A stretch of 64,000 nucleotides of DNA from positions 1 through 64,000 of IMG/VR virus record IMGVR_UViG_3300011561_000001. One strand, written 5' to 3'. The translations under genes and the position numbers were made by a program. The notes beneath the pieces were generated by a model, which was not told the origin of the DNA, made no database searches, and saw nothing but the letters and a program-made list of their open reading frames with translations. Every line of letters begins with the position of its first letter. The stretch's first letter is position 1. This stretch comes from a virus (Duplodnaviria > Caudoviricetes). Of this stretch, positions 1 through 22,537 are shown one piece after another.

Positions 1-741
1 TTAAAAAATATCCTTTCAAGGGGGGGGGGGGGTTTGTATTTGAGTATTTACCGTCTCTACAGGAGACCTTTCAAGCACTGACGGCCACCACCTCCACCTC
101 TCCCCCCAGATTATAGAAATATCCATCACTATTCCTAGCAGGCATACATCCTAAGACCACCAGACAGGGCATACCATCGATGACTGTCCGTCATCAGCCA
201 TAGACCACCCTAATCGAGATGTGTGTATGTATGACTGCACTTCGCATAACGTAGCATATGTTAAATGGATTTATAGGATGCACTATAGGGAAACCTAATA
301 ACTCAATACTTCGTATTGGAGTGATATTGCTAGGGGATAGCGTCAGCTATCGAGTGAGGAGTAGTGTTTAAATGTCGTTAAGGGATGGATATAGGGTAAA
401 AAGTACCATAAGGAGGGTAATTAATACCGTTCATGCTTAACATCATTCGTTGTACGCATTCACTCTCAGGGTATTAGAGGGGATATTTAGAGGGATATTT
501 TGAAGGGGAAAGGGTATTAGAGGGAGGCTCATAAGCAGCGTATACGCTGGCTTGTGTGCTTTCTTATGCTACCGCATGAATGGGCAGTGCAAGGGGTGGT
601 AGAGGGTGATGCTTGGTGATGGTAGGAAGGGGTTAGAGGATGGATTAAGGAGAGTGTATTGGGGTTTAGAGGCGAGTGTATGAAGGTTTTTAGATGTTTA
701 TATGTTAGACAAGAGAAAGCCCCTGTTAAGGGGCTTAAGTG
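1..741. repeat. Non-coding, probably terminal region with a G13 tract (20-32), a C-rich patch (~84-108) and about six TAGAGG-containing short repeats (~470-672)
   Basis: No credible ORF. Strong strand purine skew. gggtattagaggg occurs twice (~469, ~511). Lies beyond the last early terminator. Confidence 0.55.
717..736 (-). terminator. Rho-independent terminator, copy 1 of a 27-bp exact repeat
   Basis: AAGCCCC-ttaaca-GGGGCTT followed by TCTCTTGTCT on the minus strand, just after the 742 stop. 711-737 is identical to 1250-1276. Confidence 0.8.
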
Positions 742-915
742 TTAGACAATCTCGATAAAGTTTGTAGTGTTATTGGTATCTGTATTCCTTACAAAGCCTG
801 CATACCCTTCTAACTTATAGTCCAGCACAGAGAGTCTAACGGCCGTCCAATTATCGGTTTGAAATTCTAATGTTGGCTGTTTTTTGGTAAAGTAGATAAA
901 GACTTGATATTTCAT
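742..915 (-). CDS. Hypothetical early protein, 57 aa (MKYQVFIYFTKK...)
   Basis: Translated by hand. ATG overlaps the upstream stop; a terminator follows. Confidence 0.7.
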   Translation of the reverse strand: MKYQVFIYFTKKQPTLEFQTDNWTAVRLSVLDYKLEGYAGFVRNTDTNNTTNFIEIV

Positions 916-1082
916 TTATATACCACCTTATAGAACATACCCTCATAAGCTTCGACTGCATCATGAAAGTGAGTCATAGTAAGGTGCGCCACTACAAAAC
1001 CATCTGAGTCTACCAATTGAAACTCTTTAGCATCCCAGTAGGAACCAACATAAGTGATGCCATTAGTGATTACGGTGTTCAT
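912..1082 (-). CDS. Hypothetical early protein, 56 aa (MNTVITNG...)
   Basis: Start moved to ATG 1082 because the longer ORF-track start lies inside the promoter. Confidence 0.7.
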   Translation of the reverse strand: MNTVITNGITYVGSYWDAKEFQLVDSDGFVVAHLTMTHFHDAVEAYEGMFYKVVYK

Positions 1083-1125
1083 TGTGTGTATCCTTTTGGG
1101 TGATGTTTCTGCTCTTGATGGGTTC

Positions 1126-1154
1126 ATTGTACAGGGGCAGCATACAGCAGTCAA
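1126..1154 (-). promoter_or_regulatory. sigma70-type early promoter
   Basis: TTGACT-17-TACAAT. Confidence 0.8.
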
Positions 1155-1255
1155 CAAGAAATTGAAGAAAATTTAAATTATTTTATAATCAAATAACGTG
1201 CCAAAAGCTTACAAGAAGTGGTAAAAATTTTATCCTGTTTTTCTCTGAAAAGAGA

Positions 1256-1275
1256 AAGCCCCTGTTAAGGGGCTT
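1256..1275 (-). terminator. Rho-independent terminator, copy 2 of the 27-bp repeat
   Basis: Same hairpin as 717-736, right after the 1280 stop. Confidence 0.8.
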
Positions 1276-1279
1276 ATTG

Positions 1280-1492
1280 TTAGATATATTGATCTGGAAT
1301 CACTGCTTCGTCATACCACTTGCCTACATACTTCACACGGAAAGGGCCTGGGAGGTTATGGTGTTTGCATAGACGACTGGCTTGTTTCATTGCATCCTGT
1401 TTGTCTTGCGCTGGGAATTGCCTCCAATAATTTGATCCGTCTGTATAGACACCATCACCGCCAATACCATAATAGAGACTATATCTTTTCAT
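1280..1492 (-). CDS. Hypothetical early protein, 70 aa
   Basis: ORF track; SD-like GAGGTGG upstream; flanked by promoter and terminator. Confidence 0.75.
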   Translation of the reverse strand: MKRYSLYYGIGGDGVYTDGSNYWRQFPAQDKQDAMKQASRLCKHHNLPGPFRVKYVGKWYDEAVIPDQYI

Positions 1493-1538
1493 TTTCGACC
1501 ACCTCTGACATATTGGGATTTCTGCTCTTGATGTGGAT

Positions 1539-1567
1539 ATTCTAAGCCCATCCCAACATCACGTCAA
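1539..1567 (-). promoter_or_regulatory. sigma70-type early promoter
   Basis: TTGACG-17-TAGAAT. Shares the 15-bp leader CATCAAGAGCAGAAA (1519-1533) with the promoter at 1126 (1106-1120). Confidence 0.8.
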
Positions 1568-1683
1568 CCACCCTTTGCATTCTTTTTGAATTTATTTTCG
1601 ATGGCTGAGCAAGCCATGAGAATACATGTAATTATGGCTAAGGCTTGCATAACTAGGGATTCAATAGACATTGTGTGTTTTCC

Positions 1684-1998
1684 TTATGCTTTAGCAATCT
1701 CTGACAACCACTCCCTTACCTTCCGATCAACTGTCTCAGCTTGTGCCATAGTGGCAGCCTGAGCTGTATTGTATTCCTCAATAAAGCCTATAGTGTGACG
1801 TGTATCGCCACGACTCAATACTAACAACCCATGACTACCGCCTGTTAGAGTCCAGACGTTCAAACCATCCATAAACATCAGGTCGCCTTCGAAGACAACA
1901 TCCCCATTGCGCTTATAGATTGCTGTAGTCCAATCGAAGCTAACAACCATCAAAGCCTTTTTCAGATTGTCGTATTTAGCTTGCTGTTTAACGTTCAT
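1684..1998 (-). CDS. Hypothetical early protein, 104 aa
   Basis: ORF track; AAGGA SD upstream. Confidence 0.75.
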   Translation of the reverse strand: MNVKQQAKYDNLKKALMVVSFDWTTAIYKRNGDVVFEGDLMFMDGLNVWTLTGGSHGLLVLSRGDTRHTIGFIEEYNTAQAATMAQAETVDRKVREWLSEIAKA

Positions 1999-2172
1999 TC
2001 TATTATTCCTTTGCCTTGATTGGTAATGGATACATTATACAGCGATGTGAAAGGCTTTAACAATAGCGCTCTTGATGGGGAATGCTGCTACAGTGCAGAT
2101 GGAGAGGATCGCTATATTCATAGCTGCTAGAGTCATTGTTTGTCTCACTAGATGTTCTGTTTGTGTAAAGCA

Positions 2173-2201
2173 AGAATAGCCCCTTACGGGGCTTAGGTCA
2201 A
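2173..2201 (-). promoter_or_regulatory. Promoter with hairpin spacer (cassette copy A)
   Basis: TTGACC-taagccccgtaaggggc-TATTCT. TGA of the upstream gene is inside the -35. Confidence 0.75.
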
Positions 2202-2470
2202 GCTTGTTTGTATTTTTCTTTTCTTTCTTGTGCAATCTCTTTCTTGAATGTCTTCACATACCAGCCGTTAAAATTCCTGAGCTGAGCAAAAGCAAGATCA
2301 AAGTCTTTTTTGGCTTGCTGCCATTCTGGCATAGCTCTGACATGATCGGGAGTCATGCCCATCTCAGATTTACCATAAGAATCGAAAGCTTTCAGAGCCT
2401 TATCTGCTATATCGAGGCAATCTTCCAGGGCTTTCTTGCTTTGCTTGGCAATTATGAATTGTTTGGTCAT
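2198..2470 (-). CDS. Phage hypothetical protein, 90 aa (GMTPDHV..PEW..AK motif)
   Basis: ORF track; resembles a recurring phage early protein family (from memory). Confidence 0.75.
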   Translation of the reverse strand: MTKQFIIAKQSKKALEDCLDIADKALKAFDSYGKSEMGMTPDHVRAMPEWQQAKKDFDLAFAQLRNFNGWYVKTFKKEIAQERKEKYKQA

Positions 2471-2502
2471 GTTCTTGCTTCCGTGTTTGCTTTGTAGGGG
2501 AG

Positions 2503-2531
2503 AGAATAGCCCCTTTCGGGGCTTAGGTCAA
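2503..2531 (-). promoter_or_regulatory. Promoter with hairpin spacer (cassette copy B)
   Basis: TTGACC-taagccccgaaaggggc-TATTCT; 28/29 identical to 2173-2201. Confidence 0.75.
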
Positions 2532-2659
2532 TCAATTTTTATGTAAATCCCTTTGTATGGGATGACTACAGTCTCACCAGCTATGGTGAATCGTTCAAGC
2601 TTTCGTTTAGCTATAATCGCTACAATAAAGAAGGGGAGAATTTTAGTCCAAGTCTTCAT
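2528..2659 (-). CDS. Hypothetical protein, 43 aa (MKTWTKILPFF...)
   Basis: Translated by hand; stop overlaps the -35 of cassette B. Confidence 0.55.
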   Translation of the reverse strand: MKTWTKILPFFIVAIIAKRKLERFTIAGETVVIPYKGIYIKID

Positions 2660-2838
2660 CCGTGCACCGTAATGTAGCTCAGAAGATAAAAATCTAAACC
2701 ATAAATCTTTTCATATTCGGATATAAGATTGTTCAACCTATCCTCCAGACATTGTTTAGATATAGCTTCGTTATCCATACAAGACTCCTTAAGCCTCATA
2801 ACTTCCACAATCTCTGAGGCTAGACTTTGGCGTTTCAT
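2656..2838 (-). CDS. Hypothetical protein, 60 aa (MKRQSLASE...)
   Basis: Internal ATG with AAGGAG SD; overlaps the next start. Confidence 0.65.
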   Translation of the reverse strand: MKRQSLASEIVEVMRLKESCMDNEAISKQCLEDRLNNLISEYEKIYGLDFYLLSYITVHG

Positions 2839-2848
2839 GTGGTACTCC

Positions 2849-3073
2849 TTATAGAATAATCTTCTCAATGACTTTAATGCACTTTGCTTGCTTAGCTGCC
2901 AGACTTTTAGGCATCTCCTCGATGCTGGACATAATCTCATAGCGTTCCATCGGTGACAGTTGAGTCCAGACGCTGAGCGCCATAGCCTCTTTGGTGATTG
3001 GAAAAGCTGGGTTGATTGCCAGCATCTCGGCTTTGTAGGCTTCGGCAATCTTGAGCATTTTGGTTGTGGTCAT
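2849..3073 (-). CDS. Hypothetical protein, 74 aa (MTTTKMLK...)
   Basis: Leader repeat shared with the gene at 2470. Confidence 0.7.
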   Translation of the reverse strand: MTTTKMLKIAEAYKAEMLAINPAFPITKEAMALSVWTQLSPMERYEIMSSIEEMPKSLAAKQAKCIKVIEKIIL

Positions 3074-3108
3074 ATTCTTGCTTCCGTGTTTGTTTGGTTG
3101 ATGTGCAA

Positions 3109-3137
3109 AGGATAAAGCCCTCAACGTATGGTGTCAA
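3109..3137 (-). promoter_or_regulatory. Promoter with the -35 enclosed in an inverted repeat
   Basis: TTGACA-17-TATCCT inside AAAGCCCT...AGGGCTTT. Confidence 0.75.
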
Positions 3138-3151
3138 GGGCTTTTAGGGGA

Positions 3152-3406
3152 TTATTTGCTGTTATCGGCATTATCCATGTACACACGACCGCTAGGAGTG
3201 ACGGCAATTACCACATTAGCCAGCTCAGAAGGGCCATAATTCAACCCATAGACAAAGCCAGCATTGGGGCGAGTCTTACCACGATACAGGTTGCCATTCT
3301 CATCTGTCAGAGTGAAGCTGTAAACAGGGTTGCCGTAAACAGTGTTACGCTCGCGGTTCCAATCGAGGATGGTTGCTTTGGCGATGGCGGTTTTAGTGGT
3401 TTTCAT
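3152..3406 (-). CDS. Hypothetical early protein, 84 aa
   Basis: ORF track; AAGGA SD upstream. Confidence 0.75.
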   Translation of the reverse strand: MKTTKTAIAKATILDWNRERNTVYGNPVYSFTLTDENGNLYRGKTRPNAGFVYGLNYGPSELANVVIAVTPSGRVYMDNADNSK

Positions 3407-3444
3407 GTCTGCTTTCCTTTGGTGTTTCGTTGTTTGTTGGTGTC

Positions 3445-3473
3445 ATTCTAGCGCCCCTTTCGAGGCGCTGCAA
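3445..3473 (-). promoter_or_regulatory. Promoter with hairpin spacer
   Basis: TTGCAG-cgcctcgaaaggggcgc-TAGAAT. Confidence 0.7.
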
Positions 3474-3482
3474 GCTTTTATT

Positions 3483-3725
3483 TTACTTATTTTGATCCCA
3501 AAGCTGACCTGCATTTGCTTCTTTTGCACAATGCTCGGCAGCAGCGTTCACCAGCTTACAAACCGCCTCGACCACGTTTGACACTCCCAGCGACAAGGCT
3601 TGCATTGTCAGCGCCTCGGTTTGACCGTTAGTCTTGGCGACCACTTTCACAGCGTCCTCAATGGCAATTTTAAGGAATGCAGGGGATGCCTTGAAAGCTT
3701 CGGCTGTATAGGTTGTCTTAGTCAT
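3483..3725 (-). CDS. Hypothetical early protein, 80 aa
   Basis: ORF track; promoter TTGACT-16-TAATAT near 3798-3825. Confidence 0.7.
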   Translation of the reverse strand: MTKTTYTAEAFKASPAFLKIAIEDAVKVVAKTNGQTEALTMQALSLGVSNVVEAVCKLVNAAAEHCAKEANAGQLWDQNK

Positions 3726-3963
3726 GGCTCTGATTCCTGTCTGTCTTTGGTTGGAAGCTTGTTTCGTGTAATCTCTTGATTACGCTTCGTTGGTGATATA
3801 TTAGCATTCTGAGCTATGGAGTCAATAGGGAAAGTGAAAATAAATTGAGAAATTTTAGAAAGAAAAAGCTTGTATCCTGTGCTGGCTTGTGAGAATATAA
3901 CCACATGGAGCCACGTCCGAGGAGGGAGGGTGGACGAGTGTAAAGATTTAGGACGAGTAAAAG

Positions 3964-3986
3964 AAAACCCGGATTTCTCCGGGCTT
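3964..3986 (-). terminator. Rho-independent terminator
   Basis: AAGCCCGGA-gaaa-TCCGGGTTT followed by a T-tract after the 3997 stop. Confidence 0.75.
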
Positions 3987-3996
3987 CTGTTGTGGT

Positions 3997-4173
3997 TTAG
4001 ACGGATTCCGGGGCTTCGTGTATCCATGCGAGGATTTCTGCTCTTAGCTCATCTTCGCTGTACTCCCCAGCCAGAAAGCGCTGTTCGTCAAAGCGCTCGT
4101 ACAGGCTCATATCATCCTCAAACAATACAGCGTTGGTTAACTCGTCCTTGTTCATGTCTTCGATGGCTTTCAT
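3997..4173 (-). CDS. Acidic hypothetical protein, 58 aa (MKAIEDMNKDEL...)
   Basis: Translated by hand; promoter upstream, terminator downstream. Confidence 0.7.
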   Translation of the reverse strand: MKAIEDMNKDELTNAVLFEDDMSLYERFDEQRFLAGEYSEDELRAEILAWIHEAPESV

Positions 4174-4206
4174 GTTCTTTGCTCCAGTTGTGTGCTTGAT
4201 GTGGTA

Positions 4207-4235
4207 ATTCTAGGTGGATGGAGCGGGGCTGTCAA
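4207..4235 (-). promoter_or_regulatory. Promoter with the -35 inside GGGGC...GCCCC
   Basis: TTGACA-17-TAGAAT; upstream TGA lies within TTGACA. Confidence 0.8.
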
Positions 4236-4408
4236 GCCCCTTCTGCAATTGTTTTCACTTCATCAGCGACCAGCGGAAACAGAGCGATCACTGTAGGAAC
4301 AAGAACAACTAGAGTAGCCCATCCCATCATAGCGATGAAGATATAGCCAACAATGGAGGCCAGAGCGAGGATCATCAGAGCGGCTATAGTGGCGAGGATT
4401 GTGTTCAT
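4232..4408 (-). CDS. Small membrane protein, 58 aa, about two TM segments
   Basis: Translated by hand: MNTILATIAALMILALASIVGYIFIAMMGWATLVVLVPTVIALFPLV... Confidence 0.7.
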   Translation of the reverse strand: MNTILATIAALMILALASIVGYIFIAMMGWATLVVLVPTVIALFPLVADEVKTIAEGA

Positions 4409-4453
4409 GTCTTTAGCTCCGTTGTGTTAGGCGTTTTGCCTTTCGATGGGTTC

Positions 4454-4482
4454 ATTATATAGCCCCTTTCGGGGCGTTGCAA
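4454..4482 (-). promoter_or_regulatory. Promoter with hairpin spacer
   Basis: TTGCAA-cgccccgaaaggggcta-TATAAT. Confidence 0.8.
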
Positions 4483-4485
4483 GTT

Positions 4486-4752
4486 TTATTTATACTGCTT
4501 TTCCATAAACTCATCCACTTCGTGCCCGAAAATGTGTGTAACTTTGCTCGCTTTTGGTCTTTTGCCTATATACTCAAGCTGAATGAATAGTGTGGCATTT
4601 CCGGTAGTTACAACGCACTCGTGGGCCGCTGTGATGGATTGATCGGCGTCTAATTGCTTCGCAAGATTGTGGAATTGATGAGGTAGTTTCTCGAATGTTG
4701 TTTCAAAGGTGATATCTTCAACAGTCGCACGCAGTTTCTGAGTCTTTTTCAT
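4486..4752 (-). CDS. Hypothetical early protein, 88 aa
   Basis: ORF track; AAAGGA SD upstream. Confidence 0.75.
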   Translation of the reverse strand: MKKTQKLRATVEDITFETTFEKLPHQFHNLAKQLDADQSITAAHECVVTTGNATLFIQLEYIGKRPKASKVTHIFGHEVDEFMEKQYK

Positions 4753-4791
4753 TTTGTGTTTCCTTTCGGCTTGTTTCGTTTAGATGGTCTC

Positions 4792-4856
4792 ATTATACAG
4801 CCTGAGCCATCCTTGTATAATTGAACTTTTCTATTAACTTAATAGATATTCTCTAT
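4792..4856 (-). promoter_or_regulatory. Promoter with abutting OxyR/LysR-type operator, site 1
   Basis: -10 TATAAT, 16-bp spacer, -35 TATACA. Plus strand 4820-4856 reads ATTG-N7-CTAT-N7-ATAG-N7-CTAT. Confidence 0.6.
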
Positions 4857-5013
4857 CACTGAATAACACCCACTCCTCCTGTTTGTCTCCCCGTTCTAGC
4901 CGTCTTGTGGTCATCTTAGCGACCTTCAATGAACATGTCAACAGCTTATTTCACCTTTTTACAGACAAAAAGAAAGCCCCACCGTTAGGCAGGGCTTATG
5001 TGTAGCTTATTGA

Positions 5014-5268
5014 TTATTCCTCGTCTTCTTCCTCTCCGCTTACCAGCTCCTCAAGGATAGCTTCTGCGCGCTCTACAACCTTCACCATGTCCTGACCGTA
5101 CAAACCATTGTCAAAGTCTGTAGCACGGCAGTCAGTGTTCTGGTATTTGCCGGAGTAGTCACCGCACCAGATGTTGTAGTAAGCCCCGTTAACAGTAATG
5201 AGAATGTCGAAGTCTTCGTTGGTGGCAACGATATAGCCGTATTCAATCACTTCGTGGATGCTGTTCAT
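5014..5268 (-). CDS. Acidic hypothetical protein, 84 aa
   Basis: ORF track; promoter TTGACA-17-TAAGAT at 5317-5345; hairpin terminator ~4975-4996. Confidence 0.75.
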   Translation of the reverse strand: MNSIHEVIEYGYIVATNEDFDILITVNGAYYNIWCGDYSGKYQNTDCRATDFDNGLYGQDMVKVVERAEAILEELVSGEEEDEE

Positions 5269-5376
5269 TTTCTTTCTTCCTTAGCCCCTTTGGGCTTTTC
5301 GTTTGCTGTTGTGCGTATCTTAGAGGAGGTTGGAGCCTGTGTCAACTACTTTTCTCGATTATTTTCTGTTTTTCTT

Positions 5377-5538
5377 TCAGTAGCCAAGCCAGATCAAGAC
5401 AGCTTGCGCTTCGTAGCTGTTATGCAGCCCCATGTCCTGTACAAACTCTTCCCAGCTAGAGCCATGCTTCTCTACTTCCTTTTTAGCACGCTCTGGGCTA
5501 ATGGTGATGCCTTCTGCGCTTTCGTAGTAATCGTCCAT
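5377..5538 (-). CDS. Hypothetical protein, 53 aa (MDDYYESAEG...)
   Basis: Translated by hand; promoter TTGACG-16-TAAAAT at 5578-5605. Confidence 0.65.
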   Translation of the reverse strand: MDDYYESAEGITISPERAKKEVEKHGSSWEEFVQDMGLHNSYEAQAVLIWLGY

Positions 5539-5609
5539 CTCTTGTATCTCCGAGGCTTGTTTGCTTTCGATGTGACTATTTTACCAACCTGAAAACCTAC
5601 GTCAAGTAT

Positions 5610-5822
5610 TTATTTCCAACCTTCACGCAGACGTTTAGCTTGGCTACGCACTTCGGCAGTGGCAGCAATGCGACGCTTTGTCTCCTCGATATCGTTGAGA
5701 GCCTTTTCCAGCTTGGAAGCGTGAATCTCTTGCTCGTCTTCTGGCAGATTCCACCAACTAACAGACAACAAAGCTTCGTAAGTGCTCAGGGCTTTGTCGA
5801 GATGCTTGTTTAAGTTTTCCAT
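5610..5822 (-). CDS. Hypothetical helical protein, 70 aa
   Basis: ORF track; promoter TTGACG-17-TAAGAT at 5859-5887. Confidence 0.75.
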   Translation of the reverse strand: MENLNKHLDKALSTYEALLSVSWWNLPEDEQEIHASKLEKALNDIEETKRRIAATAEVRSQAKRLREGWK

Positions 5823-6053
5823 GATCTTACCCTCTGGGGTTCTGTGTTCGTTGAGGTAATCTTAGACCTACCGGACAAGCACGTCAACCCCCTATTTCAA
5901 AAGAATTTCACTTATTTTTCCGAGGATAAGACAGAAGATCGTTAGAGTTGTGAGTCCTCCAGCTAGCCCCATCAGGAAGCCTAGACAGGTTGCAAAAACT
6001 TCCATAGCTGCTAATTGTGTGCTGTTGGGCTGCCATTCTTGTCTGGTCATGGT

Positions 6054-6269
6054 TTAGCTCGCCTTGTTAGCGTAGCGTTGAAGCATATAGAAGAAATAAC
6101 GGGCTTTGCTACCACTCGCGTTCTTTGGTTGACGATACCCGTAAGCTTTTGCCCAGTGCAGAAGACCCTCGACTTGCTCAGACCGCAGAACGTGGAAATC
6201 ATCAGCTTTTACGTCAATACCATGCTTGAGGGAAAGCTGTTCAATGATGATATCTTTTTGAGTGGTCAT
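6054..6269 (-). CDS. Phage hypothetical protein, 71 aa (GYRQPKNASGSKARYF)
   Basis: Start moved to ATG 6269 because ATG 6323 lies in the -10 box. Confidence 0.7.
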   Translation of the reverse strand: MTTQKDIIIEQLSLKHGIDVKADDFHVLRSEQVEGLLHWAKAYGYRQPKNASGSKARYFFYMLQRYANKAS

Positions 6270-6321
6270 GTCTGCTATTCCTGTTCTAGCTGGAAGACCC
6301 TGTGTCTTCTCTGTTGTGTCC

Positions 6322-6397
6322 ATTCTACAACATACAGCTTTGATGGCAAATTGATTGTTTCTATCAGGACACTAGTAATCGATAGAACCAAGCCTAT
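6322..6397 (-). promoter_or_regulatory. Promoter with abutting LysR-type operator, site 2
   Basis: TAGAAT, 16-bp spacer, TTGCCA. Plus strand 6350-6397 reads ATTG-N7-CTAT-N17-ATAG-N8-CTAT. Confidence 0.55.
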
Positions 6398-6752
6398 CAG
6401 TATAAGTTTTGCCTGCTAATTTTGGCTCAAGAACATATATAGTTTTTGACTTGTAAAAACCACTCTTAACATCCTCGTCGCTTGGAGGATAATACGCAAA
6501 GTATTCCCATTTGCCGATTCTGTTCGCTTTGTACAGCTCAGAAATCTTATTATCATCGATTGGATTGTTGCCTTCTTTTTGCATTTGCCAGTTTACGCGC
6601 TCTTTATAACCTTATAAGGTTAGTTTTTGCAATTGGGCGCTATTGAGTGTTTTTGCAATTGGTTGGAAGTCCTCAACAAACCCATTCCAAACCATAATTT
6701 CCGGGTTCCCTTCTACACTCTCTAACAGTGTAATTAGGTCATTCTTCCTCAT
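6372..6752 (-). pseudogene. ~126-codon gene interrupted by one in-frame TAA (6612-6614)
   Basis: MRKNDLITLLES...KLTL*GYKERVNWQMQKEG...DRLGSIDY reads continuously in one frame. Confidence 0.55.
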
Positions 6753-7079
6753 AAATCCCCCACGACCTCTGTAGTTTGAAGTTCTGTCTATAGTAGTATA
6801 AATCAGAAAGCGGAACAATACTGACACTCTGACTTTTATTCTCATAGCCACTATCGAAGATGTGAGCCATACCCGCTTCTATTTTATACCAACGAGATTG
6901 TTTCATGTTCTTTTGTCCCATACTTGATAATCTGGTAGTCGTCTGATTTATGGCTCATCTCTTTTAGTTCGTATCTATAGCACCAGACACCATCCGGCCA
7001 TAAAATAATATCTTCTAAGTCTAGGCACTCATTGCATAATGCCTTTATATTCCAATGCTCACACAACGTCCTACCAATA

Positions 7080-7235
7080 TCAGTACCACACCTTGCCATC
7101 ATTAGACCATTGTTTGATGAGTCGAGCACGTTGTTTGCACCAATAGACGCCACCAATCTTATCGTTTCCTGCATCGTATGTATAGAAGATGCCTTTATTT
7201 GCTTTAGCGGCTTTGCAAGCTTCTTGATAGGTCAT
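7080..7235 (-). CDS. Hypothetical protein, 51 aa (MTYQEACKAAK...)
   Basis: Translated by hand; GGAG SD upstream. Confidence 0.65.
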   Translation of the reverse strand: MTYQEACKAAKANKGIFYTYDAGNDKIGGVYWCKQRARLIKQWSNDGKVWY

Positions 7236-7269
7236 TTCGTGTTGCTCCGTGTTTGTTCCTGTTGTGCTC

Positions 7270-7344
7270 AGTATACGGAAATCTCAAACCATCACAAATT
7301 GATTGTTTCTATAGCGTCAATGCTTTGCGATAGCTTCTTCCAAT
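7270..7344 (-). promoter_or_regulatory. Promoter with abutting LysR-type operator, site 3
   Basis: TATACT, 16-bp spacer, TTGTGA. Plus strand 7298-7344 reads ATTG-N7-CTAT-N17-ATAG-N7-CAAT. Confidence 0.55.
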
Positions 7345-7505
7345 GATTCCTCTTTCATTTCCTCGCAGTAGCTATAAACGCCTTGCTTACGCTGATATGC
7401 ACTTTCCACGACACAAGTTGTCATGTCTTCATAAATCTCAGGACTGAGTTCGTGGCATTGCCCATTAGATAGGCATACACTCACCACTAGAGCATAGAGG
7501 ATCAT
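7317..7505 (-). CDS. Small exported, Cys-containing protein, 62 aa (MILYALVVSVCLSNGQC...)
   Basis: Hydrophobic N-terminus and four Cys. Confidence 0.6.
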   Translation of the reverse strand: MILYALVVSVCLSNGQCHELSPEIYEDMTTCVVESAYQRKQGVYSYCEEMKEESLEEAIAKH

Positions 7506-7506
7506 A

Positions 7507-7632
7507 TTAAATAACCCCATAGTCTTCGTGTTGTGTTTCAATTACAGCCAAGCTAAAGACAGCTAGCAAAGCTGGAACCAGGATGAGAATAGGGGAATGG
7601 ATGATAGCAGCCCCAAGTATTAAAAGACCCAT
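7507..7632 (-). CDS. Small membrane protein, 41 aa (MGLLILGAAII...)
   Basis: Translated by hand; AAGGAG SD upstream. Confidence 0.6.
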   Translation of the reverse strand: MGLLILGAAIIHSPILILVPALLAVFSLAVIETQHEDYGVI

Positions 7633-7695
7633 GTTAATTCTCCTTAGCACCAGTATCGGTGGTTTACCGCCAATCGTAAGAAAGACGTTACCTTA

Positions 7696-8175
7696 TTATG
7701 CATTCAACTCTAAACCGGCTTTAATCATGCTAATGACATCGCTCACAGCTTGCCGTTGCGCATCCTTAAAACCAGAGGCATTAAATTTAATGCTCTCCTG
7801 CTGTTCACCATATTGCCCGGCGTTTACTTCCAAACGCCAAACGTCGCTGCCTTTGTATTTCCACAGCTTCACGTGGTTGTTGTATGGGCTTGTGTCTTCA
7901 TGTAGATGCTTGATCATGTAGACAATTTGATCCTTTGTATGCCTTGTTTCTTCTACTTTGTACCACTCTGCTGCCAAAAGAAACTGAATAGTGTTCACAG
8001 CATCATAAATCTTATAAGAATAATCTGCATCGTTTGTCGATGTTGCACGTTCCACAGCTTCTTCTACTTCCTCGTCTAGCTTGTCGAGGATTGCCAAGGC
8101 TAGGACGTTATCGTCGCAAGTTGCTTTGTGTGCCAGTTGATCGAGGCTGAGAAGGTGCAACATATTGTTGATCAT
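7696..8175 (-). CDS. Hypothetical protein, 159 aa
   Basis: ORF track; promoter TTGACA-16-TAAAAT ~8205-8232. Confidence 0.75.
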   Translation of the reverse strand: MINNMLHLLSLDQLAHKATCDDNVLALAILDKLDEEVEEAVERATSTNDADYSYKIYDAVNTIQFLLAAEWYKVEETRHTKDQIVYMIKHLHEDTSPYNNHVKLWKYKGSDVWRLEVNAGQYGEQQESIKFNASGFKDAQRQAVSDVISMIKAGLELNA

Positions 8176-8239
8176 GACAATGGTTCCTGCTGTTGGTTGG
8201 TAGCGCCCATTTTACAGGGCGCTGATAGGATGTCAATAC

Positions 8240-8536
8240 TTATTTATACTGCTTGGCTAAAAATTCGGTTTGGTCATATCCGAAAAGATTATATTCTTTT
8301 GTGCAGTAATTGTAACCGTTATTGTACATTGGGTTGTTTGGGTCGCCTTCTGAGAAAATGCCGTTTTCGTTGTCACGCTCTATTTCTTTTATGGACTCAA
8401 CAAATGCCTGTTTGTAATGTTGGGTTTTCTCGAAAGCCTCGAATACCGCCTCTGGCACTGTGCGCTTTTCCATCTGTCCTACCTTCTGGATGTTGGTTTG
8501 TGTTTGCATTGTTACCCATCCTTGGGCTTGCGTCAA
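8240..8536 (-). CDS. Hypothetical protein (start uncertain, possibly 8473)
   Basis: ORF track. Confidence 0.6.
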   Translation of the reverse strand: MTQAQGWVTMQTQTNIQKVGQMEKRTVPEAVFEAFEKTQHYKQAFVESIKEIERDNENGIFSEGDPNNPMYNNGYNYCTKEYNLFGYDQTEFLAKQYK

Positions 8537-8538
8537 GC

Positions 8539-8718
8539 ATTATTCCGCGAGTTTTCGGATTCTTTTCGTCTGTCCGTTGTGCATCCGAATGAAATACTCC
8601 GAACCGTTCCACTCCACGAAAAATCCGGTATGATGCCCATCCGGCCTCTCTTCATCAAAACGCTCCAGAATCTTACCTTCACGCCTGATTTGTTTGCTTT
8701 GCTCTTCGATGGTTCGCA
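8539..8718 (-). CDS. Hypothetical protein, 59 aa (MRTIEEQSKQ...)
   Basis: Translated by hand. Confidence 0.55.
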
Positions 8719-8949
8719 TAACGTGATCCCTTGTTTCCGGTGACTTGTAATGTTGCTCTAATCTGGGGTAGATATTGCCTGATTTCTTCCTACCTTGTCA
8801 ACCCCAATGATAGGAAATTTTGCGATTTCTTGTGCTAACAGCAGCCTTTACATAAGCTGCCATCCCATACGGAAAGCTTGTCCGTGTTTCCCTTGTAGCA
8901 GCTTTGTTCACAGAAAGCATAAGACGTTGACGGAAAGACAACGGCTTTT

Positions 8950-9168
8950 TCATTTAATGATTCTACACAAGAAAAATTTACCGGCATTGTCTGGATGATC
9001 TTCCCCTTCACTATCACGAAGAACAACTATCGTTTTTGCCACTCCCAACCCCATAATATATAAAGATTCGTTTAGGGCTGACACGTACGTGTCAAACAGG
9101 TCGGATTCGCAAACCTTCCCAGTGTACTTTTGTTTGTACTGAACCATGTAACGTGCCATTTTAATCAC
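8950..9168 (-). CDS. Hypothetical protein, ~70 aa
   Basis: ORF track; promoter TTGACG-17-CAGAAT upstream (~9196-9224). Confidence 0.6.
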   Translation of the reverse strand: MIKMARYMVQYKQKYTGKVCESDLFDTYVSALNESLYIMGLGVAKTIVVLRDSEGEDHPDNAGKFFLCRIIK

Positions 9169-9257
9169 CTCGCTTGTTTTCGTTTCTGTTGGAACTATTC
9201 TGCCCCAATGTGCCTATGTCGTCAACAGCTTTCTACAAGAAAATTACACAAAAGATT

Positions 9258-9488
9258 CTATTGGTCTTGGCTCTTCAATAGCTTAAGCTTATCAGCAGCC
9301 TCTGTATGTGACACTAAGCGCTCCATAGCTTCTAGCTGGCGTTGCTGTTGTGCATATTCAAGCTTTCTGTTACTATGAGCGTTAGCCAATAGACGCCAAA
9401 TATAGATGATGATCAACAATCCACCCGTTAGGAAAATCATTAGAATATGTAGGATGTGCCATGTAGACTTCATTTTGTTTGTCCTCAC
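9258..9488 (-). CDS. Small membrane protein, 76 aa
   Basis: HILHILMIFLTGGLLIIIYIW TM segment followed by a coiled coil. Confidence 0.7.
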   Translation of the reverse strand: MRTNKMKSTWHILHILMIFLTGGLLIIIYIWRLLANAHSNRKLEYAQQQRQLEAMERLVSHTEAADKLKLLKSQDQ

Positions 9489-9739
9489 GAATTAGCGTCA
9501 ATACCCAGCTCTTCTAGATAGGCAGTCACTCGTTCTTTTTGGGCAATGAGTGCTTCCATTATAACAGACCGATCAAACTGCACTTTTCGTGCATAGGTGC
9601 TGACGTATTCAAATGTGCAATAAGCTGGACCGGGTTTATCCTCCTTGTAAAAATCAATCAGCGTGTTGAGTTCGTCAAGTGCATCAATTGTCAGTTTCAG
9701 GTTTACAAGTGCTGTGCGGTTTTCTGAAAGCTTAATCAT
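9485..9739 (-). CDS. Hypothetical protein, 84 aa
   Basis: ORF track; coupled with the next gene. Confidence 0.7.
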   Translation of the reverse strand: MIKLSENRTALVNLKLTIDALDELNTLIDFYKEDKPGPAYCTFEYVSTYARKVQFDRSVIMEALIAQKERVTAYLEELGIDANS

Positions 9740-9752
9740 TACTTCACCCCCC

Positions 9753-10481
9753 TCAAAACAAAATTACAAACGTTATAAAGCTTAGGACAACGCCCCCAAT
9801 ATAAGGACTAAGCTTTTCTTTGTCAACAGACAATTTCTTATTTAGTGCTGATTTTACTATGTCTTTTAGCTTCTTGTGTGTAAGGATGAAGACGTTTCCA
9901 CCTTCCCACCAATCGCGTTTTTGTGTGCTGTTTTTCCCTACTATCTCTGGTCTATCTTGCCATTCTGGCAGCATTTCATCATCTGTTGATTCATCAGGAT
10001 CAACCCCAAGAGCCTTACAACGAGATTTCCATGCTCTGTGTCTCTTTTGTTCCAAAGCGAAGATCAGTTGTTTAAATTCTTCCTCGCTTATCTCTTCATT
10101 CTCAAAAGTTTTGTAAAGCTCAGCCTCTTGCTTGTCCAAACGATCAAGCGTGCGTTCCTGCGGGACAATTTGATGTGCGATAGGGGTTGTTTTCTTAGAT
10201 GGGCTTTTCTTTTGGTTAAGACCTAAAGCTTCATCACTAAAAGCTTTAATGTTTGGCTTTCCGTCTTTTGTCCAGACGTCAGGCTTGATAATCTCATCAG
10301 CCGACTGAGCTTTACGGAGTTCCCAGTACGCACTCCCTGCAAGGTTTCTCACTTCTCTTGTCAATGGGTTACGCCACTGTCTTCCGTTTCTCGACAAACC
10401 TTCCCAGTCTTCTTGTGTCCCATCTTCACACGTAGCACCAACGCCAGACCTGAATCCGTAACCCCTTGGAATGCTGATCAT
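9753..10481 (-). CDS. Hypothetical protein, 242 aa, with C-terminal TM anchor
   Basis: ORF track; ends YIGGVVLSFITFVILF; promoter TTGACT-17-TATTCT ~10520-10549. Confidence 0.75.
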   Translation of the reverse strand: MISIPRGYGFRSGVGATCEDGTQEDWEGLSRNGRQWRNPLTREVRNLAGSAYWELRKAQSADEIIKPDVWTKDGKPNIKAFSDEALGLNQKKSPSKKTTPIAHQIVPQERTLDRLDKQEAELYKTFENEEISEEEFKQLIFALEQKRHRAWKSRCKALGVDPDESTDDEMLPEWQDRPEIVGKNSTQKRDWWEGGNVFILTHKKLKDIVKSALNKKLSVDKEKLSPYIGGVVLSFITFVILF

Positions 10482-10588
10482 TTTATTTTCCTCTTACAGC
10501 TAAATTGCTTTGTTGTGCCTAGAATAAAAGAAAAGCTCCGAGGAGTCAACCAAGGAGCTTATGAAAATAATCTATTGATTATGCCTCT

Positions 10589-10846
10589 TTAATTACTTCC
10601 CCACCAGCCAAGCTCAATAGCACTCTCAAGAGCTTTGATTAGGTTTTGCGCATCCTCTTTAGAATCCAAGATAACGTTTGTGCATTCCCCATCGCGCTGA
10701 CGAGCCTCACCAGATGAATTCAGATAAACACAATCGTTTTCAGGAATAAGCTGAAGCTCCACCACCGATTCGTAATCGTCGCCATCTGCAAACTTGATAA
10801 TAGTTACAACTTCTTCTTTGCTTGTACGAATGTCAATAGAACGCAT
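10589..10846 (-). CDS. Hypothetical protein, 85 aa
   Basis: ORF track; AAGGAG SD upstream. Confidence 0.75.
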   Translation of the reverse strand: MRSIDIRTSKEEVVTIIKFADGDDYESVVELQLIPENDCVYLNSSGEARQRDGECTNVILDSKEDAQNLIKALESAIELGWWGSN

Positions 10847-10861
10847 TATGTCTCTCCTTAA

Positions 10862-10993
10862 TTAGTCAGCCGATTGCCAGCGGTTGTTACGATTCTTGCG
10901 AAGCTCACGGAAGTTTTTATGTTCCTTTCGCTCTTTCTGCTTGCTATTGCTATATTCGTTGTGTTGCTCTTGTGCATTCATGCGGATTTTCAT
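10862..10993 (-). CDS. Basic hypothetical protein, 43 aa (MKIRMNAQEQ...)
   Basis: Translated by hand; AAGGA SD upstream. Confidence 0.6.
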   Translation of the reverse strand: MKIRMNAQEQHNEYSNSKQKERKEHKNFRELRKNRNNRWQSAD

Positions 10994-11174
10994 TTCTATA
11001 ATTCCTTAAAAGCTCTTTGTTGTGTATTGTGTTTTCTTACTGGTTAATATATCTGTTCTTTAATTTTAAGTACAGTGATACCAATAAACTTCCACCGTGT
11101 TACCAAGTACTTTTTTGTAAGTACACGATGCTCAAACTCGACAACCACTAGTTTGGAAATCATCTTATTTCTCC

Positions 11175-11426
11175 TCAATACATTTTCGTCTGTTTAAGCT
11201 GCTTTTCTCGGGCAGTTGAGATATTCTGAATCAACTGCATTCCTTTGTCAACAGCTTTCTTTGCTTTTTCTTCATCTTTGAACATGTCTCGGGCGTCATA
11301 AGAAAGCTGAGCTGTGGCCCATGCTCGCCAATAGCCCAAGTCATAAGCGTTGATGGCCTTAGAAATATATTGTAGATTTTTGTATACGTTCCAAGCTGCT
11401 GATAGGTGTTGATTATAACCTAGCAT
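11175..11426 (-). CDS. Hypothetical protein, 83 aa
   Basis: ORF track. Confidence 0.65.
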   Translation of the reverse strand: MLGYNQHLSAAWNVYKNLQYISKAINAYDLGYWRAWATAQLSYDARDMFKDEEKAKKAVDKGMQLIQNISTAREKQLKQTKMY

Positions 11427-11428
11427 AG

Positions 11429-11641
11429 CTATTCTCCCACTGTAAACAATTTATCTTCAAAATCTTTAAGGGCTTGGACATATCCCTTATCCTCATCATC
11501 TTGGGGCTGGCTTTTGTCTGCAAAAGCCCCCTCCCAATGGTTCAAATGTTGCACAAGAACACTATACCCAAGCTTTATTGCATGTTCACAATCCTCGACT
11601 CCCAGCTCATAGCCTTCTTTGTATTCTGTAGATGTGCTCAT
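11429..11641 (-). CDS. Hypothetical protein, 70 aa
   Basis: ORF track. Confidence 0.7.
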   Translation of the reverse strand: MSTSTEYKEGYELGVEDCEHAIKLGYSVLVQHLNHWEGAFADKSQPQDDEDKGYVQALKDFEDKLFTVGE

Positions 11642-11893
11642 ATCACATTCCTAATTCAATTTCAGCTTGTTTTAGAAGGCTTCCCAATGAAGCTGACCAC
11701 AGAATAGGCTCTTTCTTATCATCCGTCAAGCTAAAGATTGTCCAGAGCCTATCAATCTTTTCTATGGAAAACCCTGCTTCAATAAGCATATTGTATAGCT
11801 TAGATGAATATGTGTTCATTTAAAATCCTTACAAGCTTGTGGATATTGTCAATTTTCAGGGATGTTACATGCTTTTCCTTATGATTGCAAGGA

Positions 11894-12169
11894 TTATTTT
11901 AAGCCCTGAAGAAATTCCTCGCAGCAAGTACGCAGGGCTTTCAGCACATCTTCACAGCTCCGACCTTGTGCAATCTCAATAAACTCTTCCGGGTCGCCAT
12001 CCTCATCTTCTAAACCTGTGTCAGCATAGACAACAAAATCACCACCAATCTCTTCCATGCTGATTGTAACACCGTTAGCAATAAAGAACTCCTCATCTTC
12101 TTTATTGATCTTCGTAAGATTAAGAATTTCTTTGTAACCACTTGGTGCTTTATAAAATGTGACTTTCAT
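11894..12169 (-). CDS. Acidic hypothetical protein, 91 aa
   Basis: ORF track; GGAGG SD upstream. Confidence 0.75.
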   Translation of the reverse strand: MKVTFYKAPSGYKEILNLTKINKEDEEFFIANGVTISMEEIGGDFVVYADTGLEDEDGDPEEFIEIAQGRSCEDVLKALRTCCEEFLQGLK

Positions 12170-12287
12170 TTCTTAGCCTCCAGAATTTGAATACGTTCAG
12201 AGAGTTGCGCAATCTTCTCATTTTGTTCGATATTACCTATACCCGCAATAATAAGGCTAATACCCAGTAGCACTATTGGGAGTGTGT

Positions 12288-12494
12288 TCATTTAGTCAAC
12301 ACCTCAATCAGCCGGTCCTTGTTGTCGATAATTCCTTTTACAATATCGTCTTCATCCAAGTCCCGATAATAGAACGAATGCACAATACTTTCAACAGCTT
12401 TTTCAAACTGAATTTCGTTCTCGTATTCCTCAGCCTCTTCTTTTGTATCAAACAAATGCCCACAAGAGTGCCACATCGTCACTTGCTCAACCAT
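12288..12494 (-). CDS. Hypothetical protein, 68 aa
   Basis: ORF track; GGAGG SD upstream. Confidence 0.7.
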   Translation of the reverse strand: MVEQVTMWHSCGHLFDTKEEAEEYENEIQFEKAVESIVHSFYYRDLDEDDIVKGIIDNKDRLIEVLTK

Positions 12495-12794
12495 TTTCTA
12501 TTCCTCCAAAAGTATCAGTTGTTTGGCATACTTTACAATGCGTTTTGTGTCGTTGTCAAGAATACTTTGCTTGAGATTTGCTTTTGTGTCTGCAATCTTG
12601 ACAGCTTTTGTAATTGCGAATTCTCGTGCTTTATTAGACATTTTCATTCCTCCTCTACGCCAAAATGTGGTTCTTATACACTGTCCCGTCTTGTTTGAAG
12701 CTTACAGTCACTGGCACCAGTGTGTCAACCCCAAAACGCTTACGGAAACAATCTCCCATCGTCTGAATGAGAAGTTCTTCATATTTTTCTGCCA

Positions 12795-13535: not shown

Positions 13536-14388
13536 TCCGTCTCCTTAAATTTTAGATAAACCTACCCTCTCTCATTCCCTGCAACTACCCAGCAGGCACC
13601 AATGCGCCCACTTGAATACACTCAGTATTCTAAGGATAATCACATCTGCTCAGTAAAGCAGAAGGAGAACAAGATTCTATCTCTCAAGGCACACAGCATT
13701 GCCTTAACCACCTTGCCCGTAGGTGGCATTCCCTTGGTGACTTAACCCTCACCACTATAAGACGCTACGACTGTCTCAGGTATTCGCGTCAAACAGGCAG
13801 AAAACAAATTTCTTTCTTTTCTTACGGGCCTTCTCTTTCGAGATTCCATTATGCAGGTCACTGGTTGACAGAGGTCGTCATTGCCAGCACTAACTTTTCA
13901 GTATCCGTCATTTGTCTCAACAATTGCTTCCGTGCAATCTAAACAAATCGGTTTGTGTCAGGTTTTGCTTTTGGTCGCTGAACCGAGGGAACCATGCCGA
14001 AACGCCTCTTTGAATCTATGGGTGAATAGTACCACGGAAAAATGTATGTGCAACCATCTTTACACAATCTTTACATTCAGGCCGCGTATTACAAATTTCC
14101 ACCCAGCCTTAGTACCGGGACGGGGTTAAAATTTACAATAAAATGCTCTCCAGCCTTAGTGCTGCAAGGGTTCCAGAGAAAAACCCAGAACACAAATTCA
14201 GAAAAATGCCTATAAAATCACCACCAATTCTCCACCCTCCTCCCCTAAATGTCAACACACCACCCCCTACAATTTCCTCTATCATGCTCTGCATTCTCGA
14301 TAGAAATTTACAATTATGCTTTTTGAGATGTTGATGTAGAATATGCCCAACACAAACAAATGCAAGAGAGCTTGCGAGGAGAGAAGAT
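13536..14388. other. ~850-bp non-coding gap between divergent arms; candidate replication origin or ncRNA
   Basis: No credible ORF. 11-bp direct repeat CCAGCCTTAGT (14103, 14150) flanks an AT-rich stretch. Leftward promoter at 14227-14255. Confidence 0.45.
14227..14255 (-). promoter_or_regulatory. Leftward promoter firing into the non-coding gap
   Basis: TTGACA-17-GAGAAT. Confidence 0.55.
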
Positions 14389-14862
14389 ATGGGAATGTAC
14401 ACAGGGCTTCGTGGCAGGATTCTTCTGAAGGACAATGAGCTGACTTCTGCCTTGATTGAAAAAGATTTTCAATGGGGAGAAGTTGCCTCTGTTTATTTTG
14501 ATGAGACTGTCTCAGCTTGGGCAAACGTAGGGCGTTGCAATTTCATTCCGAATGGGGCTGTCTGCTACATGCCTGCAAACTGGTCAGAGGGCTGGTCTGT
14601 TGAAGGTAATGTGCTATTCTTCACCTGCTCCCTCAAAAACTACAACAATGAGATTGAAACCTTTATCACCTACGTACTGCCCCACATAGCAGAGGCTTGG
14701 AACCTTGAGAAGCTGTACGAAGAATCTCCGTATAGCACACTGATCTCTAGTCATCAAGGACAGGTTGATAATTTTAATAGTTGTAAGTATTATGATGACT
14801 ACACAGGAGAGAAGCTTGAACAGCTTCCGTATACAGATGTATTCTCATTGGGGCTAAAATGA
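14389..14862 (+). CDS. Phage hypothetical protein, 157 aa (MGMYTGLRG...)
   Basis: ORF track; GAGGAG SD upstream. Confidence 0.8.
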   Translation: MGMYTGLRGRILLKDNELTSALIEKDFQWGEVASVYFDETVSAWANVGRCNFIPNGAVCYMPANWSEGWSVEGNVLFFTCSLKNYNNEIETFITYVLPHIAEAWNLEKLYEESPYSTLISSHQGQVDNFNSCKYYDDYTGEKLEQLPYTDVFSLGLK

Positions 14863-22508: not shown

Positions 22509-22537
22509 TTGACAACCCCTAAAACATGCTTCACAAT
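22509..22537 (+). promoter_or_regulatory. Promoter with a variant -10
   Basis: TTGACA-17-CACAAT. Confidence 0.5.

Follow-up and report, generated by a model that had tools for sequence, protein, structure and literature searches.

T-N11-A dyads are generic to LysR-type regulators, and one of these, OxyR, was reportedly found by Toledano et al. in 1994 to leave, in its reduced form, an extended footprint on the oxyR-oxyS control region of Escherichia coli. For Pseudomonas aeruginosa, chromatin immunoprecipitation combined with microarrays (ChIP-chip) yielded the OxyR consensus ATAGATTNAATCTAT, and the listed sites include ATAGACCCATTCAAT as well as a site on the Pf4 prophage, ATAGAGCAAGACTAT (PMC3378865). 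On phage DNA, OxyR has so far been linked only to mom of phage Mu and to the filamentous prophage Pf4. Here we describe a group of promoters from a virus of the class Caudoviricetes (IMG/VR record IMGVR_UViG_3300011561_000001), in which a box resembling OxyR half-sites directly adjoins the -35 hexamer. The analyzed stretch, hereafter called the window, comprises the first 64 kb of this 89,992-bp record, which is 100% complete according to CheckV. An earlier note, made from the sequence of the window alone, had pointed to three such sites, at 4820, 6350 and 7298, and had proposed that some early genes of this phage respond through them to a redox or metabolite sensor of the host.

A box adjoining the -35 hexamer is shared by four promoters

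The plus strand indeed reads ATTG-N7-CTAT at the three sites, and the boxes on the sense (minus) strand are ATAGAAAAGTTCAAT in promoter P1 and ATAGAAACAATCAAT in both P2 and P3 (cf. Table 1), the latter two sites having an identical 18-mer in common. A fourth copy, ATAGAAATTTACAAT in promoter P4, was absent from the earlier note. The element common to P1-P4 is ATAGAAA-N4-CAAT, directly adjoining a sub-consensus -35 hexamer that is followed by a 16-nt spacer and a good -10, in agreement with the hexamers and spacers given earlier for P1-P3. In the window, ATTG-N7-CTAT occurs nine times compared with 2.5 expected, and none of 100 shuffled sequences reached nine, which excludes chance. Furthermore, every exact ATAGAAA-N4-CAAT of this genome is followed by TAnnnT precisely 22 nt 3' (4/4, the chance being 1/64 for each).

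A second element lies 5' of each box. At P1, the sense strand from 4856 to 4820 reads ATAG-N7-CTAT-N7-ATAG-N7-CAAT, and the reported match of 15/16 to the four-tetramer OxyR consensus was reproduced. The second palindrome, which had been described for all three sites, is present at P1 and P3 (7/8 at the latter) and is incomplete at P2, where only CTAT is in register and the outer ATAG (6397-6394) stands at N8, i.e., one base off. At P2 and P3 the second element does lie 17 nt away, one helical turn more than at P1, and it falls within the 3' end of an open reading frame (ORF) in both cases (6372-6584 and 7317-7520, respectively).

The genes assigned to P1-P3 in the earlier note are the first ORFs with a ribosome-binding site 3' of these promoters, and the one driven by P3 encodes a protein that is 98-100% identical in three relatives. 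The supposed restriction to some early genes, however, was not upheld. P4, with the ORF that it drives, stands at the head of the plus-strand replication module, which includes a DUF7230 protein, a primase-helicase and the DNA polymerase (19938-22493), and in other phages the box belongs to the main repeated promoter type (see below). The P4 operator sits between P4 and a divergent minus-strand promoter, TTGACA-17-GAGAAT (-35 at 14255-14250).

Between 0.7 and 13.5 kb, the minus strand carries small ORFan genes, most of them with a strong promoter of their own of the form TTGAC(A/G/T), 16-18 nt, TAnnnT, with phased A-tracts 5' and no box; about 30 other promoters of this genome have TTGAC(A/G/T) and likewise lack a box. 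Since these unboxed strong promoters dominate, the boxed promoters represent a distinct minority class with a sub-consensus -35.

Table 1. Boxed promoters P1-P4 in the window, and the terminal region in four related phages (positions in their own genomes)
Feature	Position	Strand	Sequence or layout	First ORF driven
P1 proximal box, adjoining the -35	4820..4834	-	ATAGAAAAGTTCAAT (ATAG-N7-CAAT)	
P1 distal perfect dyad	4842..4856	-	ATAGAGAATATCTAT, 7 nt 5' of proximal box	
P1 core promoter	4792..4819	-	TATACA (4819-4814), 16 nt, TATAAT (4797-4792)	88 aa, 4486-4752
P2 proximal box	6350..6364	-	ATAGAAACAATCAAT	
P2 distal element	6382..6397	-	CTAT (6385-6382) 17 nt 5' of box	
P2 core promoter	6322..6349	-	TTGCCA, 16 nt, TAGAAT	71 aa, 6054-6269
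P3 proximal box	7298..7312	-	ATAGAAACAATCAAT	
P3 distal dyad	7330..7344	-	ATTGGAAGAAGCTAT, ATTG-N7-CTAT (7/8), 17 nt 5' of box	
P3 core promoter	7270..7297	-	TTGTGA, 16 nt, TATACT	51 aa, 7080-7235
P4 proximal box	14300..14314	+	ATAGAAATTTACAAT	
P4 distal element	14268..14282	+	TACA-N7-CTAT; CTAT (14279-14282) 17 nt 5' of box	
P4 core promoter	14315..14342	+	TATGCT, 16 nt, TAGAAT	157 aa, 14389-14862
Terminal region, G001	46203-46310			
Terminal region, G002	32480-32525			
Terminal region, G003	20067-20176			
Terminal region, G004	42620-42696			

Some further signals surround these promoters. Read on the plus strand, the P1 hexamers (4792-4821) give TATACA-16-TATAAT, a mirror-image promoter-like site aimed back into the operator. 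About 120 nt 5' of P1, a strong tandem promoter, TTGACA-17-TAAGAT (-35 at 4941), fires into the P1 operator; it comes after a terminator (4974-4997) and precedes only a 5-codon mini-ORF, and a protein bound to 4820-4856 would be located at roughly +50 to +85 of its transcript and might form a roadblock there. A conserved C/A-rich leader (CACAACAGA, CATCAA, CCAACACAAAC) is found at transcript starts, e.g., at 6310-6321, 7258-7269 and 14343-14356, and a similar leader (CATCAACAGAA) stands 3' of boxed promoters in unrelated IMG/VR phages.

The boxes are kept in related phages while their surroundings change

Four relatives of this phage (G001-G004), with complete genomes of 87-90 kb, share 30-46% of their DNA with it at ~86% identity. 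The sites proved to be conserved: the boxes are kept at orthologous promoters in all four genomes, which also contain extra copies. Exact ATAGAAA-N4-CAAT is found 16 times in five related genomes, compared with 2 occurrences of the reversed control. At P4, both boxes are invariant across the relatives while the 17 nt between them vary, and in G003 the homology stops precisely at the end of the P4 box. Taken together, the count, the invariance and the position of the homology break suggest that selection acts on the boxes themselves.

Both the intervening 16-17 nt and the downstream genes differ among the relatives while the boxes stay. The same promoter-leader cassette precedes different ORFs depending on the relative, encoding 71, 67, 79 or 64 amino acids (aa) in the case of the P2 type and 157, 71, 198, 160 or 107 aa in the case of P4. 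Since the genes behind one cassette differ in this way, the cassettes are portable units of modular shuffling; no recurrent gene family was found 3' of the boxes. Such cassettes might be kept mainly as recombination joints for the shuffling of small genes, in the manner of the promoter-stem-loop (PeSL) cassettes of T4-type phages, with their sequence conserved through common descent. Identical promoters and leaders before different ORFs, the homology break at the P4 box end of G003 and the 18-mer shared by P2 and P3 would all fit this explanation. However, descent fails to account for boxes in otherwise dissimilar lineages with GC contents from 0.41 to 0.62 (see below), nor does it explain why only the arms of the dyads are conserved in orthologues, and we regard it as extremely improbable that the cassettes are kept mainly for this purpose. 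A role in recombination is, at the same time, compatible with a regulatory function rather than opposed to it.

In nearly all instances, (C)TATC stands 16-17 nt 5' of the proximal ATAG, and perfect ATAG-N7-CTAT distal dyads at a gap of 16-17 nt are found in G001 (50585/50602), in G004 (38553/38584), in the G003 orthologue of P1 and in the cultured Pseudomonas phage vB_PsaM_M1 (61878/61896). The distal dyad of P1 is ATAGAGAATATCTAT in this genome, and ATAGGGAATAGCTAT and ATAGAAAACGGCTAT in its orthologues, with unchanged arms around freely varying centres. Between the distal dyad and the proximal box, the gap is 7 nt here and 16 nt in two orthologues, which corresponds to a 9-bp indel; judged from these alignments, the two-turn spacing at P1 is a derived state of this genome alone and the sole case in the clade. 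Gaps of 7 or 16-17 nt place the dyad centres two or three helical turns apart, and T-N11-A is present in both ATAG-N7-CAAT and ATAG-N7-CTAT. Spacing that changes in steps of about one helical turn, combined with palindromic arms, points to a dimer-of-dimers protein lying on one face of the DNA and argues against an UP element alone.

A pure UP element was nevertheless the explanation that we first favored, owing to the position of the A-tract and to a variant displaced by one turn. It assumes no dedicated factor: the A-tract at -46 to -39 would be contacted by the C-terminal domain of the RNA polymerase alpha subunit and, together with curvature, would offset the weak -35, much as in the extended consensus of T4 early promoters. 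The A-tract, being within the -38 to -59 region typical of UP elements, does coincide with the proximal UP subsite, and in the variant promoters, where the box is 11 nt further from a strong -35, it lies one turn 5', at the distal subsite; furthermore, phased A-tracts also accompany the early promoters of the ordinary type in this phage, and the motif is phage-specific. This model, however, leaves unexplained why ATAG and CAAT are conserved although the centre between them varies, and it accounts neither for the perfect, GC-containing distal dyads that lack A-tracts nor for the conserved CTAT(C) two turns 5'. In view of the palindromic distal dyads and of the conservation confined to the arms, it was judged insufficient, and we now consider it very unlikely.

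The boxed promoters resemble ahpC promoters of Pseudomonadaceae

As a reference for genuine OxyR sites, ahpC was taken from a Pseudomonas fluorescens genome together with its orthologues in 30 Pseudomonadaceae genomes, and 28 upstream regions were aligned; this family may not be the group of the phage's host, for which a hint is that the closest box-bearing isolate infects a Pseudomonas sp. The ahpC promoters have the layout [ATWG-N7-CWAT]-N7-[ATnn-N7-CAAT], directly adjoined by a weak -35 (e.g., TATACC or TATGCC). Their proximal half-site is CAAT in 24/28 and CTAT in 0/28 cases, TAnnnT comes 23 nt (23/28) or 22 nt (5/28) after the dyad, and the dyad centres are A-rich, e.g., ATAGAAAAAACCTAT. 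The phage promoters share with them a CAAT in contact with a weak -35, an A-rich dyad centre and the placement of the -10. The objection that CAAT in place of CTAT speaks against OxyR was rejected, since CAAT is what most of these ahpC promoters have.

When a weight matrix was built from the 28 distal ahpC dyads, the phage sites at 7344, 7312, 6364 and 4856 were within the top 6 of the whole phage genome, with scores (13.6-15.7) inside the range of the ahpC dyads themselves (median 15.3). A matrix of the full 37-nt ahpC site was discarded, as it was over-fitted to the ahpC spacers and nothing scored well. The phage boxes also match the ChIP-chip consensus of P. aeruginosa OxyR quoted above.

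The reader of the boxes might instead be another protein that is present in the host before infection, such as a different LysR-type regulator or a nucleoid-associated protein. T-N11-A dyads would suit LysR-type regulators in general, and the three-turn spacing is without OxyR precedent in the host genomes searched. The tetramers and their register at the -35 are, however, those of ahpC and of the OxyR ChIP data, which makes such a protein distinctly unlikely in our opinion. Sites for IHF, Fis, FNR/Anr, CRP and Fur were rejected, as the boxes did not fit their consensus sequences on inspection.

The three-turn operator occurs in unrelated phages

The composite CTATC-N15/16-ATAGAAA-N4-CAATT was searched for in IMG/VR and gave at least 90 non-redundant instances; among the matches listed, TAnnnT lies exactly 22-23 nt after the box in 51/90. 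A looser pattern and one anchored on the A-tract were abandoned, having given mostly chance matches among the matches listed. Most of the contigs that bear the composite share nothing with this phage, and their GC contents span 0.41-0.62. In phages of ~60 kb (G005, L233, L191 and L175), the composite is the main promoter type and recurs every 0.5-1 kb before small ORFs. The complete genome G005 has no BLAST-detectable protein in common with this phage, and when profiles of 208 protein families of the clade were compared with the unrelated motif-bearing contigs, only the family A DNA polymerase, which in the ~60-kb phages is a distant one, and a few unrelated larger proteins were retrieved.

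The only cultured phage found to have the boxes is Pseudomonas phage vB_PsaM_M1 (OP714164.2; host Pseudomonas sp. ZM01, seawater). This phage contains three sites, and at one of these a perfect distal dyad lies at a gap of 17. Its boxed promoter with the perfect distal dyad (61803-61922) is located in a divergent gap inside a baseplate gene cluster, which indicates that the class is not confined to early regions. The motif was not found in the phages ventosus, phiK7A1, PAK_P4, muut and DSL-LC04, a BLAST search of cultured phages with the consensus promoter gave no match, and literature searches with the box sequence strings or the phage name found nothing.

Since unrelated phages share the motif on early-type cassettes, the factor that reads it should already be in the cell. 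The fourth copy at the replication module and the role of the composite as the main promoter type elsewhere suggest, in addition, that this factor is constitutively available and that the boxes are not a stress-only switch. No match to the LysR-type helix-turn-helix domain (PF00126 HTH_1) was found anywhere in the 89,992-bp genome, and thus a LysR-type reader would need to be a host protein.

A dimeric protein of unknown family, encoded by the phage or delivered with the virion, could also read ATAG-N7-CTAT/CAAT, acting as a class II-type activator of delayed-early or middle promoters that may bind the dyad cluster of the terminal region as well. Its existence would agree with the confinement of the three-turn composite to virus contigs, cellular genomes showing only background, with the position of P4 at the head of a replication module, a typical middle function, and with the many conserved early ORFans that have no assigned function (76, 242, 43, 83, 70 and 58 aa; 9.2-11.8 kb); the non-coding dyad clusters in the terminal regions of the relatives likewise suggest a phage-specific role. 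On the other hand, by BLAST and profile search the unrelated motif-bearing lineages share only the polymerase, no consistent gene lies 3' of the boxes, and the tandem early-type cassettes of other lineages need a factor at time zero. Moreover, the resemblance to host ahpC promoters, seen in three features independent of each other, would then be coincidental, and we consider a phage-made reader unlikely.

A putative operator for host OxyR

The sequence of the boxes, their register, their conservation, their helical phasing and their likeness to OxyR-dependent promoters are direct observations. Because they resemble ahpC promoters, are used by unrelated phages and have no LysR-type counterpart among the phage genes, host OxyR is the favored reader. 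We hypothesize that the boxes are a putative operator for this protein or for a very similar pre-existing regulator of the host, mostly in a three-turn arrangement specific to phages, and to our mind this reading has about an even chance of being right.

If so, the protein, already in the cell when the phage arrives and most likely OxyR, would bind as a dimer of dimers and activate transcription. The first dimer would occupy the proximal ATAG-N7-CAAT, which spans about -49 to -35 (centre -42), and would touch the weak -35; this is the position of the proximal OxyR dimer at host ahpC, where it recruits RNA polymerase. The second dimer would bind the upstream ATAG-N7-CTAT dyad or its CTAT half, with the dyad centres two turns apart at P1 (gap 7) and three turns apart at P2-P4 and in nearly all relatives (gap 16-17). 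The three-turn sites would fit the extended tetramer of reduced, resting OxyR and the two-turn site the compact, oxidized one, in which case OxyR would serve P2-P4 as long as the cell is free of stress, with a change upon oxidation, and peroxide would induce P1. As far as the paraphrase of the extended footprint of reduced OxyR in PMC2225504 goes, the three-turn layout matches it. A more far-reaching version is that we are dealing with a widespread promoter class of lytic phages, present in at least two unrelated lineages, whose evolved and optimized three-turn operator, absent from bacterial genomes, captures reduced OxyR at an activating position, so that early and replication genes are driven by a host sensor that is present at all times and are reprogrammed under oxidative stress, P1 being a peroxide-inducible derivative. 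This version we advance only tentatively, as a possible but rather doubtful extension.

Several observations weigh against OxyR as the reader. The four adjacent tetramers that make up its activating layout are found at P1 only; at the other three promoters, and likewise in the relatives, 16-17 nt separate the dyads, and many sites lack the outer half-site. In E. coli, the reduced protein occupies a small number of sites and is not known as an activator. The ahpC site of this bacterium shows much stronger degeneracy and bears less likeness to the phage boxes than the Pseudomonadaceae sites do. In 121 Pseudomonadaceae genomes, CTAT-N16/17-ATWG-N7-CAAT-N22/23-TAnnnT gave 4 matches compared with 5 control matches, and no precedent in a host was thus found. 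When 596 Gb of bacterial and archaeal genomes were searched, the composite with a -10 gave 12 scattered matches, which is background, and the 20-mer consensus gave 4. Across the wider IMG/VR set, an ATAG-like outermost half-site is rare and the first tetramer may also be ATTT or ATTG, among the matches listed. Finally, the terminal region of the relatives contains perfect ATAG-N7-CTAT dyads (two or three, at distances of 16 nt) without a conserved promoter (cf. Table 1). The original idea of a host redox sensor is therefore sustained in part: the half-sites, the A-rich centre, the CAAT at the weak -35 and the distance to the -10 resemble those of OxyR sites, whereas the two-turn spacing is limited to P1 and searches of host-type genomes did not reveal the three-turn composite.

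In this genome, the terminal dyad cluster has collapsed to ATAG-N12-CTAT (about 122-141). The terminal region itself is a gene-free stretch of ~700 bp after the last early gene (window 1-740, minus strand), with CCCTCTAA-type iterons and GGATATTTT repeats; its possible roles are those of an origin, a packaging site or a regulator sink.

Genome context and other features

The phage has a GC content of 43%. Its DNA polymerase shows ~55% identity to the enzymes of Pseudomonas phages including ventosus and ~52% identity to those of PAK_P4 and some large E. coli phages; no close cultured relative was found at the DNA level, and a search of 185,579 species genomes with the polymerase revealed no relative. 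A tyrosine integrase was not found in this phage, nor were tRNAs in the window. As no Rfam family matched in 1-15000, an RNA element was rejected as an explanation of the boxes. Pfam and PHROGs searches of 37 ORFs near the sites, of the core early and middle-region ORFs and of three ORFs at 75-82 kb indicated no DNA-binding family, with one exception: a 299-aa protein (28146-29045, plus strand) in a nucleotide-metabolism block, in which N-terminal HTH_23, HTH_38 and HTH_5 matches are fused to a calcineurin-like metallophosphoesterase and which is probably unrelated to the boxes.

Six small early proteins encoded at 9258-11819 on the minus strand (76, 242, 43, 83, 70 and 58 aa) are present in all four relatives, mostly with 76-100% identity (70-89% for the 242-aa protein), while the neighbouring early ORFs are variable. 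None of them belongs to a Pfam family, and they are candidates for host take-over functions. Between an HNH endonuclease gene (12795-13535) and P4 lies a stretch of ~850 bp without a called gene (13536-14388), predicted to be transcribed from the minus-strand promoter at 14255. Its only ORFs, of 39-42 aa (13742-13861 and 13939-14067), are conserved in two relatives and may encode small proteins or belong to a non-coding RNA. A possible further promoter class, with TTGAC(A/G/T), 17 nt and (A/C)ACAAT in place of TAnnnT, is seen at 8536 on the minus strand and at 22509, 23461 and 29050 on the plus strand.

Comparison with known systems

Were host OxyR or a similar protein the reader, lytic phages would sense the cell's redox state as early as the first minutes after infection. 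The three-turn operator would then also offer a natural probe, of high affinity, for the extended tetramer, a form about which little is understood, given the scarcity of natural sites that bind it. In many uncultured phages the motif identifies a promoter class, and it could aid both the annotation of transcription units and the guessing of hosts. Since the cultured phage vB_PsaM_M1 carries the same boxes and its host is known, the proposed reading is directly testable. What would be new here is an OxyR-type operator with phage-specific spacing serving as a promoter class of lytic phages.

Compared with OxyR-activated promoters such as those of ahpC, katB and dps, the phage promoters have the same tetramers (ATAG/ATTG and CTAT/CAAT) 7 nt apart with T-N11-A, the same final CAAT touching a weak -35 and the same -10 at 22-23 nt after the dyad, and P1 has the full two-turn layout. 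They differ in that the gap is 16-17 nt instead of 7 nt at P2-P4 and in nearly all relatives, often with only the CTAT half, and in that they drive ORFans and a replication module and not peroxide defence genes. With the oxyR-oxyS region of E. coli, the P4 operator has the divergent promoters in common; the extended complex represses oxyR there, whereas the weak -35 and the position of the dyad suggest activation in the phage.

A host OxyR motif on phage DNA is known from Mu mom, where repression is Dam-sensitive, and from the Pf4 promoter region (PMC3378865; PMC12395586), and the Pf4 site ATAGAGCAAGACTAT resembles the distal dyads described here. Those phages, however, are temperate and filamentous, and they have single sites without a register at the -35. 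Unlike Mu mom, this phage has no GATC methylation logic; it is a lytic phage without an integrase, and its boxes form a repeated promoter class.

A T4 MotA-type middle promoter was rejected, since the box ends at the -35 and neither the MotA nor the AsiA Pfam family was found among the called genes at 1-36 kb or the scanned early ORFs. Like the MotA/AsiA-dependent middle promoters and the early promoters of T4, the boxed promoters are a phage-specific class that combines a good -10 with a sub-consensus -35 and has an additional conserved element upstream; the MotA box, however, is centred at -30 and replaces the -35, whereas the box described here is palindrome-like and lies at -49 to -35. Similarly to the PeSL cassettes of T4-type phages, conserved promoter cassettes stand before small ORFs that are swapped, but the conserved part is here an operator-like pair of dyads that is common to unrelated phages.

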